This document shows positions 4,788-10,829 of a DNA stretch of 32,540 nucleotides, one piece after another. A program made the position numbers and the translations under genes. The notes under the pieces were generated by a model, which saw nothing but the letters and a program-made list of their open reading frames with translations, searched no databases and was not told the DNA's origin. Each line of letters begins with the position of its first letter. Within the stretch, counting starts at the first letter, position 1. Source of the stretch: Candidatus Nanohaloarchaea archaeon. GTDB taxonomy: Archaea; Nanohalarchaeota; Nanosalinia; Nanosalinales; Nanosalinaceae. The DNA lies in assembly GCA_047617745.1 (NCBI GenBank), contig JBLGBN010000009.1:1-32540 (forward strand). Reading direction: 5' to 3'.

Positions 4788-6647
4788 ATGCAGCTAGGCA
4801 CAATAGAAGGAAAGGTCAACACTTCTTCGTTCAAATTCCGGGCAACAGAAGAGGTAAAGAAATTCGACTTCGTATCGGTGAAAAGCGATGAAAAATGGAT
4901 ACTGGCCCAGGTCGAAGAAGTTGAAAAGAAACCTGGAGGAGAAACTCTGGCGAAAGCAAGTATAATCGGATACCGGGACAAAGGCCTAACTAAAGCACCG
5001 AGAAGGGTTATAGAACCCGACTCAATTGTCTACGCTGCAGACCAGGAACTGATTTCAGATACTCTTGGATTGGAGGAAGCCGGACTAAGGATCGGCCATC
5101 TTGAAACAAACCCTGATATAGATATCCATGTCAACAAGGAAGACTTCTACAAACACTTTGCAGTCCTTGCTCAAACCGGGGCAGGAAAATCGTATCTCAC
5201 AGGAGTTTTAATTGAGGAAATGCTTGAGCAGGATCTTCCAGTAATGATAATCGATCCGCACGGAGAATTTAACTCGCTTTCCCAGCCAAACCCGGATAAC
5301 GAAGACGCAAGCGAGAGGAAGGGATACAAGGTAAACGAGTACTCGCCGAACACAGATATTAATGATCATGCGATGCCGCTGTCTTTCTCCTCTGTAAACA
5401 TGGAGAAAAAAGAGCTGCTCGATGTCATACCGGATTCTCTGACCAACTCCCAGATGGGGGTGCTCTACAACGCACTGAAGAGGTTGAGAGACAAAAATGA
5501 GGACTACACTCTAAACGATATAATGGATGAGGTGTCAAATGAAGACTCCACTGCTAAATGGAACCTGCTGAACTCTCTGGAACAGCTGGAAAGATCCGGC
5601 TTGTTCTCCGAGGATGCAATAGAACTTGAAGATCTTCTGGAGCCTGGAGAGGCTACTATAATTAATCTAAAGGCGGTAGAGCCGGAGACTGCGGAGATGA
5701 CTATGTTCATGCTCGCGAAAAGGATGTTCAATCTGAGGAAGGAGAACCGTATCCCGCCTTTTATCATGGTTATTGAGGAGGCACATAACTTTGCACCTGA
5801 GAAAGGCTTCGAACAGGCGTTGAGCAACAAGATTTTGAGAAAGATCGCTTCAGAGGGCCGAAAGTTTGGACTCGGGATAGGAGTAATTTCACAGAGACCG
5901 GCAAGGATCGATAAAAACGTGCTATCTCAGGCAAATACACAGTTTATTCTTAGGGTCACCAACCCAAATGACCTGAAGGCGATCTCGAAATCATTTGAAG
6001 GAATCACCAGCGAAGTGGAATCAATGATCAAATCACTTCCGCCTGGAGTCACTTTCGCGCTTGGGAATGAATACCCGGTTATGACTGATGTGAGAACCAG
6101 AAAATCGAAACATGGTGGAACAACCCAAACTTCTGAAGGCTACAAAGAGAAGGAAAAAATCAGGATGTTCGAACCTCAGAAAACAGTTCAGGAAATCGAG
6201 ACCGAGAAAGGAGAGAAACATGACGTAACGTACTACCCGCTTTACCTGCATGAAACAGGTGAGAAGAAAACTCTTTACGATGCAGTTAGCGGCGAGAAGA
6301 AAGCCGAAGTCAATAAAGTATCAGGAAGAGAGAAAAAGGTACTTGAACACATCGAGGAGGACAGGAACAAAAGCGAGATCATGGAAGAACTAGATATAAC
6401 GCTCTCGAAAGTTACATCCGTAGTTGAATCACTTAGGAACAAGAACCGTGTAAAGGACGAAGGGCTCGAAACTGAGGAAACCATTTTCGGTAAAAATCGT
6501 ATCGAGGAAAGAGTCGAAGAGGAAAAGTTGATCGAGATCGGTAAATCGCCGGAGGAGCTAGGAATTGAAGGTTCTGAACTTTTATACTACCCTTACTACT
6601 CAAGCGGAGAGGACGTTTATGACCCTGTCTTGGAGCAGGATGTATAG
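4788..6647 (+). CDS. HerA/FtsK-superfamily (DUF87) ATPase with N-terminal HAS barrel and C-terminal wHTH-containing extension
   Basis: HFAVLAQTGAGKS (Walker A), IIDPHGEF, IMVIEEAHNF (Walker B), SEGRKFGLG and SQRPA motifs. Confidence 0.88.
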   Translation: MQLGTIEGKVNTSSFKFRATEEVKKFDFVSVKSDEKWILAQVEEVEKKPGGETLAKASIIGYRDKGLTKAPRRVIEPDSIVYAADQELISDTLGLEEAGLRIGHLETNPDIDIHVNKEDFYKHFAVLAQTGAGKSYLTGVLIEEMLEQDLPVMIIDPHGEFNSLSQPNPDNEDASERKGYKVNEYSPNTDINDHAMPLSFSSVNMEKKELLDVIPDSLTNSQMGVLYNALKRLRDKNEDYTLNDIMDEVSNEDSTAKWNLLNSLEQLERSGLFSEDAIELEDLLEPGEATIINLKAVEPETAEMTMFMLAKRMFNLRKENRIPPFIMVIEEAHNFAPEKGFEQALSNKILRKIASEGRKFGLGIGVISQRPARIDKNVLSQANTQFILRVTNPNDLKAISKSFEGITSEVESMIKSLPPGVTFALGNEYPVMTDVRTRKSKHGGTTQTSEGYKEKEKIRMFEPQKTVQEIETEKGEKHDVTYYPLYLHETGEKKTLYDAVSGEKKAEVNKVSGREKKVLEHIEEDRNKSEIMEELDITLSKVTSVVESLRNKNRVKDEGLETEETIFGKNRIEERVEEEKLIEIGKSPEELGIEGSELLYYPYYSSGEDVYDPVLEQDV

Positions 6648-6713
6648 AGTTTTCAGAACCAGATAGATCTAATAAGTTTGCTTTTCCAGGTTTAGTATGT
6701 GGACTAGTTTCTT

Positions 6714-7688
6714 ATGAATAGAACATCGGATGGAAGGTTTAAGCAGAGAAGATGCGTGATAACTTCGGGAAATCTTGAAGAAGTAATTGATAATATAAAA
6801 TCAAATAAGTCCTGGACTTGGACTGAATTTGCAGAAGAATTTGGTGTTTCTGCATACACTCTCCGTCAAGATTGGCGAAAAAATGCTGATTCAATACCTT
6901 TCTCGGTAGCATCTAGGTTAAATGAAATGTCTGGCTTACAGTTAGAGTTTGAAAATAAGGCTTTGTGGCATGGGCAGAAGAAGGGAGGCCAAAAATCAAG
7001 TATGCGCGGTAATACGCCTAGTGAATGGGATAAGAGATTTGCAGAGCTTTATGGCGCTTTACTGGGTGATGGTTGTGTTTATTCCAATATGAACGGCTTC
7101 TGTATAACAGGGAATGCTAGCCTTGATGAGGACTATATCCGGTCTCTTGCAGAGCATTGTAGAACTGTTTTTGATATAGATCCTAAAATACATTTTCAGG
7201 AGGAAGAAAACGTAGTAAGGCTTATACTCAATAGCCGAAAAATTGCTAGATTTTTAGAGGATGAAGGCTTTCCCTGTGGCGCCAAAAAGGATAGCGAGTT
7301 CTGCCCTCCCGAAGTTTTAGTAAGTGATAAAGAACTCCTATCTGCTTGTATACGCGGGCTTTTTGACACGGATGGAGGTATATACGCCCATCCAAATTCG
7401 GGTATAATGTTAGATATAACTGCTAAAAATGATGATATTTTCAGATTTCTAGCTGAGTCTTCGGAAACTTTAGATCTACCTCTCAATCCAACTGAAGGAA
7501 AGTTGCAGCTTTATGGTGAGTCAAAAGTTGATGAGTTCTTGAGAAAGGTTGGGAGTAGCAATTCTCGAAATATTAAAAGGTACCTGTACTACAAAGAGAA
7601 TGAAAGTTTGCCGAGCGCAGATTCAACAACCCTTTTAAGATCAAGGAGTCAGGACTTTAATGTGCCTTATTTTGGGTTCGTGGTCTAG
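6714..7688 (+). CDS. Free-standing LAGLIDADG (intein/DOD-type) homing endonuclease-like protein with N-terminal HTH
   Basis: Two LAGLIDADG motifs (AELYGALLGDG, ACIRGLFDTDG), a block D-like FPCGAK and a block H-like LYGESKVDEFLRKVG. HTH-like WTWTEFAEEFGVSAYTLRQDW. No intein splicing termini. AT-richer than flanks; stop TAG lies inside the tRNA. Confidence 0.88.
   Translation: MNRTSDGRFKQRRCVITSGNLEEVIDNIKSNKSWTWTEFAEEFGVSAYTLRQDWRKNADSIPFSVASRLNEMSGLQLEFENKALWHGQKKGGQKSSMRGNTPSEWDKRFAELYGALLGDGCVYSNMNGFCITGNASLDEDYIRSLAEHCRTVFDIDPKIHFQEEENVVRLILNSRKIARFLEDEGFPCGAKKDSEFCPPEVLVSDKELLSACIRGLFDTDGGIYAHPNSGIMLDITAKNDDIFRFLAESSETLDLPLNPTEGKLQLYGESKVDEFLRKVGSSNSRNIKRYLYYKENESLPSADSTTLLRSRSQDFNVPYFGFVV
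7631..7640 (+). promoter_or_regulatory. Putative TATA box of the tRNA-Val gene, embedded in the endonuclease CDS
   Basis: CCTTTTAAGA lies about 35-40 nt upstream of tRNA position 1. Confidence 0.5.
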
Positions 7689-7778
7689 TTGGTTATCCAA
7701 TGCTCAGCTCTGCTGGCTTTGGACTAAGACGTCGCCCTTACAAGGCGAAGATCCCCAGTTCGAATCTGGGCGAACCCA
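7674..7778 (+). tRNA. tRNA-Val(TAC) with D-arm intron; CCA not encoded
   Basis: Acceptor GGGTTCG/CGAACCC plus discriminator A. Anticodon arm TCGCC-CTTACAA-GGCGA (TAC at 7739-7741). T arm CCCAG-TTCGAAT-CTGGG. The D arm is restored by removing 31 nt. Confidence 0.95.
7697..7727 (+). other. 31-nt tRNA intron at non-canonical position 22/23 (alternative register 21/22, 7696-7726)
   Basis: Relaxed BHB: GGTT(7691-94) pairs with GACT(7722-25), 3-nt bulges ATC and AAG, inner stems CAA/TTG and CAGC/GCTG. Splicing gives the typical archaeal Val D arm GTCTAGTTGGTTATGAC. Confidence 0.8.
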
Positions 7779-7865
7779 TGCTAACTCGGCTTTCATGTCG
7801 ATCATAAAAAACCCTGTACTGTTGTCACCGCCAAGTACTTAAAATCTCATGAGTATATTAATAAT

Positions 7866-8216
7866 ATGTCTGGTAAAGTGAAACAGGTCATTGTACTCAG
7901 AGAAGACCTGAACATCAGTAAAGGCAAGGAAATATCTCAGGCATGTCACGCCTCGCTTGGAGCATACAAAAAGGCCGATCCAGAGACTATCTCCAAGTGG
8001 GAAGCTCAAGGCGCCAAAAAGGTAGTGCTTTCCTCCGGCGACCGAAAGCTGGAAGATTTATATGCTGAGATTAAAAGTAAAGATATACCGGCCTATCTTG
8101 TAAAAGATGCTGGTAAAACTGAGATTGAGCCTGGCACGATCACCGCTCTCGGGATCGGTCCGGCTAAGGAATCGAAAATCGATAGTATAACGGGAGAACT
8201 CAAGCTTATAGGTTGA
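7866..8216 (+). CDS. pth2: Peptidyl-tRNA hydrolase Pth2
   Basis: Motifs KQVIVLREDL, GKEISQACHA, KKVVL, DAGKTEIEPGTITALGIGP and ITGELKL. Confidence 0.95.
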   Translation: MSGKVKQVIVLREDLNISKGKEISQACHASLGAYKKADPETISKWEAQGAKKVVLSSGDRKLEDLYAEIKSKDIPAYLVKDAGKTEIEPGTITALGIGPAKESKIDSITGELKLIG

Positions 8217-8223
8217 TACAAAA

Positions 8224-9381
8224 ATGATGGAAGACTTAATGGAATGGGAGTATTACACGGAAACGCCTGGAATAAAGGGCGAGATAAAGGAACAGGTAAA
8301 CGACTTTATAGTGGAAGAACTTGCGTCGCACGAGACAGATGAAGATGGCGACCATCTGATAGTCAAACTGAGAAAGCAGAATATGACCACGATGGAGGCA
8401 ATTTCAAAGCTCTCCAATATGCTCCACATTTCCAAAAACCGGATAGGTTATGCGGGAAACAAGGATAAGAGGGCAGTTACTGAACAGCATATTTCTATTC
8501 AGGGCGTAACTCAGGAAGACGTTAACCAGGTTTTTACAGATGAGTTCGAACTTGAAGTGGTCGGCAGAAACGGCCACATTGGACTTGGAAATCTAGATGC
8601 TAACAGATTTGAAATAACTATAAGACAGCTTAACCTTCCGGTAGATGATCTTAATGACAGAACTTTGAAGATTGTCGATGAAATGGACAGCAAGTTTCCG
8701 AACTACTTTGGAAAGCAGAGATTTGGTTCATCAAGACCAATAACGCATCAGGTAGGTAGACTTATTTTACAGGAGGAATACGAGGAAGCTGTCTGGACCT
8801 ATATCGCTAAACCTTATGACCAGGAGTACAAGAGTATCAGGAAGATAAGGCAGGAACTCTGGGATACGAGAGAGGTAGAAGATGCGGCGGAGAAATTCCC
8901 GGAGCAGTACAGGTACGAGAAAGCACTTCTATACCATCTGACCAAGAACCCTGGAGATTACAAGGGCGCGATCAAAAGATTGCCTGACGGACTTCAGCAG
9001 TTATTTATCCACGCGTATCAGTCTTGGATCTTCAACAGAGTGCTGTCAAGGCTTATTGAGGACGGCTGGTATGAGCCGGAGTACGAGATACCGCTAGTAG
9101 GTTACAAGACAGATCTGAAAGACGGAAAACCGGAGAATATGATTGAGGAAATTATGGAAGAAGAGAATGTCTCACAGGAAGATTTCAGACTTCAGAACTT
9201 CCCAGATCTCAGAAGTGAGGGGACTTACAGGAGAGCATTTGCCGACTTCAGAAACTTTGAGGTCCTCGATCTAGACGAGGACGATCTCAACATGAATATG
9301 AACAAAATGACTGTCAAGTTTGACCTCCCGAAAGGCGCTTATGCAACGGTCTTCCTTAGAGAGATAATGAAGAACAGGTAA
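8224..9381 (+). CDS. truD: tRNA pseudouridine(13) synthase TruD
   Basis: Motifs DFIVEE, GYAGNKDKRAVTEQ, NRFEITIR, PNYFGKQRFG, HAYQSWIFN and FDLPKGAYATVFLREI. Confidence 0.95.
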   Translation: MMEDLMEWEYYTETPGIKGEIKEQVNDFIVEELASHETDEDGDHLIVKLRKQNMTTMEAISKLSNMLHISKNRIGYAGNKDKRAVTEQHISIQGVTQEDVNQVFTDEFELEVVGRNGHIGLGNLDANRFEITIRQLNLPVDDLNDRTLKIVDEMDSKFPNYFGKQRFGSSRPITHQVGRLILQEEYEEAVWTYIAKPYDQEYKSIRKIRQELWDTREVEDAAEKFPEQYRYEKALLYHLTKNPGDYKGAIKRLPDGLQQLFIHAYQSWIFNRVLSRLIEDGWYEPEYEIPLVGYKTDLKDGKPENMIEEIMEEENVSQEDFRLQNFPDLRSEGTYRRAFADFRNFEVLDLDEDDLNMNMNKMTVKFDLPKGAYATVFLREIMKNR

Positions 9382-9389
9382 AAAAGAGG

Positions 9390-10829
9390 CTAGCTGGATT
9401 CTCTGTACTGGAAGATCATCACTTCGCCTCCAAACTCTTTCAGTAGTGTTATGTTCTCATTTTTCTCTAGATAGTTTAGATCCGGGTGAACCAGAGGGGA
9501 GGCCTGGGAATAGTATATCAGGTCGCCATCTTCGAATTCTATGGAGGAATAATTTTTACCGGTACTTACTTTCCTGACATCCAGCTTGCTGTAATAAGCT
9601 ATAGCAGGGTACTGGAATGAGGTATATATTTTATCCTCAGGGCTGTAGTTCTGTTTAAGCCATTCTGCTGCTGTTTCTACAGGGGGTTCCCAGGAATCCT
9701 GTATAAGTGAATTCCTGTCCGGCATATCTCCAGGCGATGTTATGCTAAGGATCGATATACTGGCTATTAAGACGGCGATTATATAACCTGCTCTTCTTAT
9801 TGAACTGCTTTTGGGCTCAATTTTACTTGAATAGTAGCCAAGTATCAAGCATATGAAGGGAATAGAGGGAAGCAGGTAACGAGGCTCTTTGTGGGCAAAT
9901 ATGAACTGCAAAGGTATCAATAGAGCTAAAGCGAAATATGCAGGGATTTTAAGCTCCTTTATATCTTCCAGTTCTGAACTAAATACGCCGGCTATCGACA
10001 GCATTACGAAGCCTAAAGGAAGCAGGAGATGGTAATTCTGGATATAAAGCCAGAATGAGGAAACCGCCCCTGTAGCGTTTAAGCCACCTATAAAGACGTG
10101 TACCGGATTACCAAATACGATCTGGTTCCAGACCAGGTAAGGAGTCATCACACCGAGAAAACTGCCCAGGATTATCCAGTTACGTTTTCTGGTCAACATA
10201 TCTTGAACGGCATTCCTTACTCCAACCGAGTTATAGCTTCTGTTGATCTCTAGAAGGAGCAACAGAGGACACAGTATGAGAGAGGTAAATTTAGCAAGAA
10301 CTGCTAACCCGACACTAACCCCCGTTAGAACCGTATATTTCATCGCCCTGGTCTTCCTCTCCTTAACATAGAAAAAAGCTGTTAAAATCCAGAAGAGCGG
10401 CAGTATGCTGTCAATTAGTAAGTCATTAGACATTGTAACTGCGACAGGAGTAACTGCATAAGCAGAAGCAGAAAGTAAACCTACGGAAACGCTGTAGATC
10501 TCCTTACCAAGGTAATAGAGCATGAAGACGCTGAAAGTTGAGAGAAATGCTACTATTGCATGGAAAACTATGAAAGAGTCGGTGAATACTTGAGCGGACC
10601 CAAGAATTAGAGACATCAACGGCGGTCTTATGTCGAATTCATTGTAGTTATTAGGAGACTCGCCTGTAATTATTTCGGAGTGCTGGAGATAAACTGTTTC
10701 ATCCCAGTAATGGAAACCGGTTCTTATAGGGAATATTCTCAAAGTTAGCGCTACGAAGAGGATCAGAAAAAGCACTAACCTTAGATGTCGGGATGAAAGA
10801 TTTTCTTTCATTTGAAAGTTATTTCCCAA
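9390..10829 (-). CDS. GT-C fold glycosyltransferase (ArnT/PMT_2, GT39/GT83-like); start may be ATG at 10811
   Basis: WDETVY after TM1, RPPL, GLAVLAKFT, PYLVWN and KEPRYLLP motifs; many TM helices. Confidence 0.85.
   Translation of the reverse strand: MGNNFQMKENLSSRHLRLVLFLILFVALTLRIFPIRTGFHYWDETVYLQHSEIITGESPNNYNEFDIRPPLMSLILGSAQVFTDSFIVFHAIVAFLSTFSVFMLYYLGKEIYSVSVGLLSASAYAVTPVAVTMSNDLLIDSILPLFWILTAFFYVKERKTRAMKYTVLTGVSVGLAVLAKFTSLILCPLLLLLEINRSYNSVGVRNAVQDMLTRKRNWIILGSFLGVMTPYLVWNQIVFGNPVHVFIGGLNATGAVSSFWLYIQNYHLLLPLGFVMLSIAGVFSSELEDIKELKIPAYFALALLIPLQFIFAHKEPRYLLPSIPFICLILGYYSSKIEPKSSSIRRAGYIIAVLIASISILSITSPGDMPDRNSLIQDSWEPPVETAAEWLKQNYSPEDKIYTSFQYPAIAYYSKLDVRKVSTGKNYSSIEFEDGDLIYYSQASPLVHPDLNYLEKNENITLLKEFGGEVMIFQYRESS

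Follow-up and report, generated by a model that had tools for sequence, protein, structure and literature searches.

A LAGLIDADG endonuclease gene joined to an intron-bearing tRNA-Val gene in a nanohaloarchaeon: a candidate homing cassette of the tRNA D-arm

Anatomy of the endonuclease-tRNA locus

The window analyzed here is a 32,540-nt stretch of DNA (contig JBLGBN010000009.1) from a Candidatus Nanohaloarchaea archaeon (assembly GCA_047617745.1, referred to here as G000; 834 kb, 88.6% complete). Within 1.1 kb, it carries a gene for a double-motif LAGLIDADG endonuclease (homing endonuclease gene [HEG]), an insertion scar, and a tRNA-Val(UAC) gene with a 31-nt intron in its D-loop. The elements are arranged in the order promoter, stump of a tRNA gene, HEG body, second promoter and leader (which code for the tail of the HEG open reading frame [ORF]), 5' exon, intron, and 3' exon (Table 1). 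The initial annotation of this DNA, made from the letters alone, had described a free-standing LAGLIDADG gene fused onto an intron-bearing tRNA-Val gene, and this anatomy was confirmed. The stump upstream of the ORF is new here, and the layout first assumed (a neighboring gene plus a separate intron) gives way to that of a cassette duplicating the promoter, the leader, and the 5' exon. Judged from its sequence, the gene is probably a mobile and active LAGLIDADG gene, free-standing and physically fused to the intron-bearing tRNA-Val gene.

The ORF terminates in ...NVPYFGFVV*. Its final 15 nt (GGGTTCGTGGTCTAG; positions 7674-7688; five codons with the stop) are nucleotides 1 to 15 of tRNA-Val(UAC), as had been noted initially, because GGGTTCG (7674-7680) pairs perfectly with CGAACCC (7771-7777) in the acceptor stem. 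The start codon likewise lies inside tRNA-derived sequence. The TATA-like box of the tRNA gene, which codes for ORF residues LLRS (about 306 to 309), is located at -41 from the tRNA in all four HEG-bearing alleles found (G000, G004, G066, and G067), in agreement with the position of the box in HEG-less alleles. The claim that the ORF runs through the tRNA promoter thus stands as a statement about position. A (V/L)PY motif encoded just upstream of the tRNA was retained even in homologs of only 28 to 35% identity. If the tRNA were excised from a hypothetical HEG-tRNA cotranscript, the mRNA would lose its stop codon.

The protein matched LAGLIDADG_3 (PF14528) with 26.7 bits (cutoff, 22.5). It has two LAGLIDADG helices, each ending in an acidic residue at the catalytic position. 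These residues (D119 in GDG and D220 in TDG) and K191, already described as intact in the initial annotation, were invariant in an alignment of 17 family members, as were G118, G120, D218, T219, and G221. The AlphaFold model (pLDDT, 87) consists of a pseudodimeric alpha-beta-beta-alpha-beta-beta-alpha core preceded by a 100-aa, four-helix N-terminal domain (helices at residues 21-32, 36-41, 47-57, and 63-73); residues 311 to 324 have values below 50 and form a disordered tail. Comparisons of the N-terminal domain with Pfam gave only subthreshold matches to helix-turn-helix families (AraC, E value of 0.023; MerR; DeoR; and HTH_11). Foldseek matches included intein endonucleases (TliVMA, 7qsu; E value, 2.2e-10) and the archaeal intron enzymes I-Tsp061I (2dch; TM score, 0.71) and I-DmoI (0.6 to 0.64). 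The ORF is AT richer than its surroundings, as hand counts had suggested. Its G+C content is 39.7% versus 45.9% for the genome (a value this low occurs in only 1.2% of 4,021 equally long genome windows), and the G+C content at third codon positions is 33% versus 45 to 52% in the neighboring genes. The further claim that its product is less acidic than the neighboring proteins holds for herA (18.9% Asp plus Glu) and truD (19.2%) and fails for pth2 (14.7%), given a value of 15.1% for the ORF.

In orthologous tRNA-Val(UAC) genes that lack the insert, the sequence is GGTTAT/GACGTCGCC (the slash marks the junction). Given that this junction is GGTTAT/GACG, the insert corresponds to positions 7697-7727 (31 nt); these bounds are also backed by metagenome contigs that join 7696/7728 and by a fold with both cuts at these sites. 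The insert begins at the ninth base after the ORF stop, i.e., the ORF ends 8 nt before the intron, exactly as first reported. In the fold, the D-loop GGTT (7691-7694) pairs with GACT (7722-7725) to form helix H, both splice sites lie within 3-nt bulges (ATC and AAG), and an inner helix follows. Neither manual inspection nor folding revealed a strict hBHBh' motif, because only one pair is left of the outer helix h; the minimum-free-energy fold places both bulges on one strand. The relaxed bulge-helix-bulge (BHB) form, HBh', was obtained for 17 of 19 D-loop inserts and for 70 of 900 shuffled inserts; under the criteria used, no such solution was found for the L095 insert or for the insert in the tRNA-Gln gene of G000. 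Excision restores the sequence of the intronless allele exactly, and all seven nanohaloarchaeal alleles tested yield GTCTAGTTGGTTATGACGTCG after excision. The G004 insert is an unrelated 40-nt sequence, in which GACT is replaced by a compensating GATC. A scan of positions 7400-8000 with Rfam detected no family besides tRNA, and the insert is not a group I intron (31 nt; HBh' fold). The genome encodes the splicing endonuclease EndA (PF01974; contig C19, positions 9783-10064; 94.3 bits), and HBh' introns of the D-loop are listed, in the accessible part of one source, as known substrates of splicing endonuclease types with broad specificity (PMC5829648). The 31-nt insert is predicted to be an intron that the host splicing endonuclease removes.

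The stump is a decayed copy of the part of the tRNA gene that ends in the D-loop. A pattern of the intronless tRNA (nucleotides 7 to 25) matched positions 6699-6717 with three mismatches (0.01 matches expected by chance in the window), and the match ends in the HEG start codon (6714-6716). In local alignments, the score of the stump was reached by 8 of 500 shuffles in G000, 1 of 500 in G066, and 3 of 500 in G067. With the true 5' exons found in HEG-less alleles, the stump can be aligned column by column as far as ...TTAT; beyond it, at the same D-loop nucleotide, the stump enters the ORF and the true exon enters the intron. Such a break at the intron nucleotide is the expected outcome if the enzyme cuts the uninterrupted D-arm there. 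Thirteen of the 16 aligned positions agree between the stump and the 5' exon of the window, and the differences may represent decay. The same junction (stump-ATG-AAT-AGA-ACC) was present in a Woesearchaeota homolog of 36% identity (L061). Positions 6650-6715 align with 7633-7696 (score of 14, reached by 19 of 1,000 shuffles), and the repeat may extend across the promoter and leader. The segment 6650-6698 also aligns with the leaders of HEG-less alleles, which resemble both the left and the right promoter copies.

A giant intron, with the stump as the real 5' exon and the HEG inside the intron, was rejected for the present gene because neither the acceptor strand nor the GG required by helix H is present in the stump. 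As an account of how the locus originated, it may still apply.

Table 1. Features of the endonuclease-tRNA locus and its flanks (window coordinates)
Feature	Positions	Strand	Description
herA	4788..6647	+	Left flank; Pfam DUF87/HerA, E value of 7.8e-33
Left promoter/leader copy	6650..6698	+	TATA-like TCTAATAAGTTT at 6668-6679; probable HEG promoter (putative function)
Stump (pseudo-5'-exon)	6699..6716	+	Decayed tRNA-Val nucleotides 7-24; ends in the D-loop; last three bases are the HEG start codon
Double-motif LAGLIDADG endonuclease ORF (HEG)	6714..7688	+	Free-standing; 324 aa plus stop
N-terminal four-helix domain (aa 1-100)	6714..7013	+	Helices from the structure model; possibly helix-turn-helix
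LAGLIDADG motif 1	7032..7079	+	FAELYGALLGDGC; catalytic-position D119
LAGLIDADG motif 2	7338..7385	+	ACIRGLFDTDGGIY; catalytic-position D220
ORF C-terminal tail (aa 301-324)	7614..7688	+	Coded by internal tRNA promoter, leader, and tRNA nucleotides 1-15; TATA-like box at 7633-7641
tRNA-Val(UAC) exon 1 (tRNA nucleotides 1-22)	7674..7696	+	Acceptor pairing and fold; same as 5' part of intronless orthologs; contig joint 7696/7728
D-loop intron	7697..7727	+	31 nt; relaxed BHB (HBh') type; fold and intronless alleles
tRNA-Val(UAC) exon 2	7728..7778	+	Anticodon TAC at 7739-7741; discriminator A at 7778
pth2	7866..8216	+	Right flank; PF01981, E value of 3.2e-37
truD	8224..9381	+	Downstream of pth2

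Distribution of the endonuclease gene and the intron

The HEG is single copy in G000, and orthologs were found in 4 of the 70 genomes of the class: intact genes in G000 and G004 and pseudogenes in G066 and G067. The G004 ortholog (329 aa; 53% identity) has the tail NFGFVV*; the G066 ortholog (60%) is frameshifted, and that of G067 (49%) contains four in-frame stops. The gene order herA-(HEG)-tRNA-Val-pth2-truD is common to G004, G066, and G067, and a tRNA-Val gene lies upstream of pth2 across the family. No HEG was detected in G001, G002, and G003, which are the closest relatives (TruD-N identities to G000 of 96%, 91%, and 92%, respectively), in which herA is directly followed by the tRNA gene. 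This sporadic distribution with decayed copies is as in a homing cycle. As judged from sequence identities, HEG similarity is discordant with host relatedness, with 60% identity to G066 of another genus (TruD-N, 73%) versus 53% to G004 of the same genus (TruD-N, 85%).

Nine full-length homologs of 53 to 86% identity retain 109 invariant columns, including both motifs. All eight full-length close homologs in the protein database (53 to 86% identity) end in tails of the form ..PY.GF[VM]V*, and the ending is G[PS]VV in four more distant ones. Overall, 12 of 22 retrieved sequences carry G[FPS][VM]V*-type tails, similar to the G[PFL]VV*-type tails that the initial annotation had proposed to look for. 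A metagenome search with the single protein gave no match, and one with an alignment as the query returned distant relatives only. Weaker matches to the LAGLIDADG core in relatives (G001 to G058) are mostly located inside open frames of 900 to 2,300 aa, which are probably large host proteins with intein-borne endonucleases.

The tRNA-Val(UAC) gene beside pth2 was examined in 23 genomes of the family (four more lacked the locus, and about 26 were not looked at). Eight alleles carry a D-loop insert: G000 and G004 with an intact HEG; G066 and G067 with a broken HEG; and G001, G002, G003, and G019 without a HEG. The other 15 alleles, six without any intron and nine with an anticodon-loop intron only, contain neither a D-loop insert nor a HEG. 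Every HEG-bearing allele (4 of 4) therefore has the insert, as do 4 of the 19 HEG-less ones; Fisher's test gives a P value of about 0.008, with genomes that are not independent. In this sample, HEG presence goes with the D-loop intron, the co-occurrence that the initial annotation had proposed to look for, and the intron also occurs without the HEG. In genus g20, HEG and insert occur together in G066 and G067 and are both missing from G023. The G001 insert is identical to that of the window, and the G066 insert is identical at 27 of 31 positions. Insert similarity (close in G066 and unrelated in the same-genus G004) thus parallels HEG similarity. The tRNA-Val(UAC) genes of G013 (L029) and G014 (L036) have very long anticodon-loop introns, with gene lengths of 273 and 167 nt, respectively.

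Empty alleles, which the initial annotation had suggested seeking in relatives or in metagenome reads, exist in the same metagenomes. Contigs in three runs contained an intronless tRNA-Val with identical exons (join 7696/7728). One contig of 1,886 nt comprises a herA-like piece, 760 other letters, and the intronless tRNA-Val, compared with a spacing of 1,705 nt in the window; on its sequence, this contig represents an allele with neither HEG nor intron that belongs to a related organism from the same habitat. An intronless, HEG-less contig matching window positions 5895-5968 and 7674-7845 had a word depth of 352 versus 118 for the organism of the window in run X4 and of 31 versus about 6 in run X12. 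Given these higher depths in two runs, a potential recipient is abundant in the same samples. No contig joining across the HEG within this species was found in four runs, a gap that proves nothing.

A custom finder combined with a check of D-arm spacing and read by eye was applied to the 38 ARAGORN calls of G000, and only three real tRNAs lacked a normal D-arm: Val, Gln, and Leu. These are the three tRNA species that the endonuclease family targets in relatives. The tRNA-Gln(CUG) gene (contig C6, positions 7966-8102) and the tRNA-Leu(CAA) gene (contig C30, positions 5635-5817) have D-loop inserts of about 64 nt or more and no adjacent endonuclease gene. Distant homologs of the protein of the window are encoded directly upstream of the same tRNAs in relatives (Gln in L003, L005, and L009; Leu in L053).

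An endonuclease family docked on tRNA genes

An alignment-based search of species genomes resulted in 80 loci from Nanohaloarchaeota, Woesearchaeota, Pacearchaeota, Nanoarchaeota, Aenigmarchaeota, Iainarchaeota, Hadarchaeum, and many bacteria of the candidate phyla radiation (CPR). A same-strand tRNA 5' end was located at the ORF stop (i.e., -160 to +80 nt from it) in 62 of these loci with a strict T-arm/acceptor tRNA finder, which misses some real tRNAs (e.g., in L061, L063, and L080). In a second set of 80 loci, from metagenomes, the figure was 66 by either method. As a control, the remaining frames of these loci with a length of 150 aa or more were considered, and 15 of 373 had a tRNA at the stop. 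Homologs thus abut tRNA genes, as anticipated in the initial annotation. Archaeal members adjoin Val, Gln, Ala, Arg, Leu, and other tRNAs, and CPR members almost always adjoin an intronless tRNA-Ser. The locus of the window is the archaeal, intron-bearing face of this large and apparently undescribed family, whose members dock on tRNA genes of DPANN archaea and CPR bacteria alike.

The tRNA label was traced on a FastTree tree of 50 proteins, from which 3 broken copies, 7 sequences interrupted by in-frame stops, and 21 loci lacking a clear label had been omitted. HEG clades follow tRNA identity in this tree, with 5 label changes versus at least 20 in each of 200 shuffles, a signal that is overstated because kin share labels. 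Stumps (scores reached by at most 1 in 300 shuffles) were present ahead of the ORF in 9 of the 60 loci tested. The stump of L066 is identical at 20 of 20 bases and is therefore young. D-loop inserts of 24 to 49 nt were found in 14 of the 26 parsed class I tRNAs beside archaeal family members (9 of 11 for Val-UAC).

Three further arrangements were observed. L063 (positions 1920-2010) contains two nested tRNA-Val stumps, the outer of which matches the first 21 nt of the gene perfectly and leads into the relic of an ORF start; the arrangement looks like the sequence trace of two successive invasions of one tRNA gene. In L013 (positions 1392-1905; G002), a frameshifted homolog, split into frames of 149 and 123 aa, shares 10 nt with the 5' end of a tRNA-Cys that has no intron. 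In L006 (positions 2127-2231; G040) and L019 (positions 2124-2270; G023), the ORF converges on a tRNA of the opposite strand and overlaps or abuts its 3' end, a second docking geometry; the tRNA-Val(GAC) of L006 has an insert near the variable region.

A candidate homing cassette and its alternatives

We consider it fairly probable that the locus is a selfish homing cassette in the D-arm of tRNA-Val(UAC), which would cut the intact D-arm, rebuild the gene, and be shielded by its intron. The anatomy of the locus, its fold, a patchy distribution that includes decayed copies, docking on tRNA genes throughout the family, and the association of HEG and intron are shown above; to these we add, by inference, a cut site, an immunity, a splicing step, and a direction of events. 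The cassette would consist of the LAGLIDADG gene, a copy of the tRNA promoter and leader within the last 25 or so codons of the ORF, a fresh copy of tRNA nucleotides 1 to 22, and the 31-nt intron. The enzyme would recognize and cut the uninterrupted D-arm (around ...GGTTAT/GACG...) of a tRNA-Val gene free of both cassette and intron, and the cassette-bearing copy would serve as the template for repair of the break. The promoter and 5' part of the recipient would be displaced upstream and persist as the decaying stump, a region that would now act as promoter and 5' leader of the HEG, while the 5' exon of the cassette would rebuild the tRNA. The mini-intron, placed exactly at the rebuilt junction, would block cutting, and the host splicing endonuclease would remove it from the RNA. 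Intron-only alleles, as in the closest relatives, could arise by recombination between the direct repeats or by intron-only repair or short conversion tracts.

Several observations weigh against this interpretation. First, the intron occurs without the HEG in four genomes, one of which (G019) belongs to another genus, and could therefore simply predate the HEG. Second, many relatives, including all 22 tRNA-Ser-linked (mainly CPR) loci in the tree, are on intronless tRNAs; an intron is thus not required for the lifestyle of the family, and these loci, with the four HEG-less genomes that keep the intron, exclude its role as a universal partner, which the initial annotation had implied. Third, the uninterrupted tRNA-Val(GAC) gene of G000 is identical to the putative target through the junction and differs at two positions 4 to 5 nt downstream, and the enzyme would have to discriminate those positions or risk self-cutting. 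No stump was detectable in L003 or in the G004 allele, for which 498 of 500 shuffles scored as high. The cross-genome counts are phylogenetically nonindependent. Finally, HEG identity to G004 (53%) about equals that of Pth2 (54%), a match that is also compatible with vertical inheritance from an old ancestor and subsequent losses.

The first three of these points are what one would expect if a mobile HEG had its target elsewhere (in the tRNA 5' end plus leader or in the herA-tRNA spacer), destroyed that target by its own insertion, and came to lie beside an older, unrelated D-loop intron. We regard this explanation as unlikely in view of the break of the stump at the intron nucleotide in three alleles and in the distant Woesearchaeota homolog, the parallel similarities of HEG and intron across genera, and their joint presence or absence in genus g20. 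D-loop inserts in 14 of 26 archaeal family-adjacent tRNAs, and the coincidence of the three aberrant tRNAs of G000 with the family targets, also speak against it.

The agreement between HEG and Pth2 identities leads to a different possibility, namely, a vertically inherited, decaying relic of an old invasion, with repeated losses and with a window copy that is intact by chance or recently inactive, so that nothing moves today. The common synteny of all four carriers, the two pseudogenes among the four copies, and the decayed stump without an acceptor strand would be in line with such a relic. The 109 invariant columns in nine homologs, the closer relationship of the G066 HEG than of the G004 HEG against host relatedness, the strongly atypical composition of the ORF, the young stump of L066, and the coexistence of empty target alleles in the same samples make it improbable.

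A domesticated WhiA-like regulator that binds the promoter or D-arm DNA overlapped by its own gene, the alternative raised in the initial annotation, is very improbable: WhiA chains do occur lower among the fold matches (8dy7_I; TM score, 0.64), the N-terminal domain has weak helix-turn-helix matches, and the position over the tRNA promoter is conserved, but the WhiA model (PF14527) scored 19.6 bits against a cutoff of 23.2, the catalytic-position Asp residues are invariant, the possible helix-turn-helix is N terminal rather than C terminal, and the gene was not found in 66 of the 70 class genomes (the three closest relatives among them) and has decayed to a pseudogene in two, a patchy and decayed pattern that a needed regulator would not show. 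WhiA itself, which also combines a LAGLIDADG double domain with a helix-turn-helix, is not known to retain the LAGLIDADG catalytic residues and has another domain order.

Family members on intronless tRNAs may avoid self-cleavage in another way. Among 22 stump loci picked by hand, a choice that also weakens the case for the cassette, the D-stem of the stump differs from that of the working tRNA in 13 of 13 intronless loci and in 5 of 9 intron-bearing loci, which weakly suggests two escapes from self-cleavage, an intron or a variant D-stem. A broader hypothesis, which we advance only tentatively, is that the D-loop tRNA introns of ultrasmall archaea are by-products of one domain-spanning LAGLIDADG cassette family that homes into the D-arms of specific tRNAs and rebuilds the gene with its own 5' exon; a mini-intron or a variant D-stem would provide the shield, and loss of the nuclease between direct repeats would leave a solo intron. 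How archaeal tRNA genes gain introns at noncanonical positions and become disrupted is an open question, on which reviews exist (PMC4090602, PMC4390854, and PMC3293823). If true, the by-product hypothesis would explain concretely, at the DNA level, how such introns are gained and spread and, by extension, would point to a route towards disrupted or split tRNA genes. The idea that the intron is both shield and footprint of a homing cassette is directly testable at this locus, with natural empty alleles in the same samples.

In terms of known systems, the anatomy would amount to a mirror image of the mobile ORF (mORF) cassette of fungal mitochondria combined with the logic of collaborative homing. 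A case of collaborative homing is reportedly F-CphI with the psbA intron of cyanophage S-PM2. In the accessible text of two sources, the term denotes a free-standing endonuclease acting with an ORF-less intron, e.g., T4 mobE with the defunct I-TevIII intron (PMC6083498 and PMC2790892). As in that model, the nuclease gene of the window lies outside the intron and beside an intron-bearing conserved gene, and an intron at the presumed cut site would cause intron and nuclease gene to spread together. The locus of the window differs in its 31-nt, putatively protein-spliced, archaeal BHB-type intron (there, a self-splicing group I intron), in a host gene that is the tRNA of a cellular archaeon (there, a phage gene), in the LAGLIDADG type of its nuclease, and in the duplicated promoter, leader, and 5' exon that flank the nuclease gene, whose cleavage activity is putative.

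The mORFs are described, in the accessible part of one report, in atp6 of Allomyces macrogynus and in atp6, atp9, cox2, and nad3 of Glomus; their layout is a gene core, an inserted C terminus, an endonuclease ORF, and the native C-terminal stump, and the mORF may be in phase with the host gene, without a stop of its own, leaving the native end as an unexpressed stump (PMC3630166). On that description, both types of endonuclease ORF enter a conserved gene, supply a replacement gene end, and leave a stump, and at the locus of the window, too, the ORF is flanked on either side by a copy of a gene segment, one of which is a nonfunctional stump. This locus is their mirror image in that the replaced end is the 5' end, with an upstream stump. 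Its host gene is a tRNA gene in archaea or CPR bacteria, in contrast to the protein-coding genes of organelles, and a putatively spliceable mini-intron is present at the junction.

T4 SegB is encoded by a free-standing nuclease gene beside phage tRNA genes and is preferentially inherited with them (intronless homing). It resembles the HEG of the window in adjoining tRNA genes and differs in being of the GIY-YIG type and phage borne, without gene overlap, stump, or intron. I-DmoI and I-Tsp061I share with the HEG product of the window the double-motif fold, archaeal hosts, and introns spliced by the BHB endonuclease; in contrast, their ORFs lie inside long rRNA introns, whereas the ORF of the window lies outside a 31-nt tRNA intron and codes for an extra N-terminal domain of 100 aa. 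A literature search in which subscription journals were not covered identified no paper in which LAGLIDADG genes are described as docking on tRNA genes or are linked with BHB introns of tRNAs. For CPR bacteria, LAGLIDADG genes are mentioned only in rRNA introns (PMC8172020), and archaeal group I introns are reported only in rRNA genes (PMC6125680).

The locus also matters for annotation, as tRNA finders miscall such genes. Because of the D-loop insert, the tRNA-Val gene was misbounded or misnamed by the callers: ARAGORN with default settings placed it at 7707-7777, Rfam placed it at 7715-7778 (35.3 bits), and the intron mode of ARAGORN (-i) reported a false "tRNA-Gln" at 7673-7779. The tRNA-Gln(CUG) gene of the same genome was misnamed tRNA-Arg by ARAGORN.

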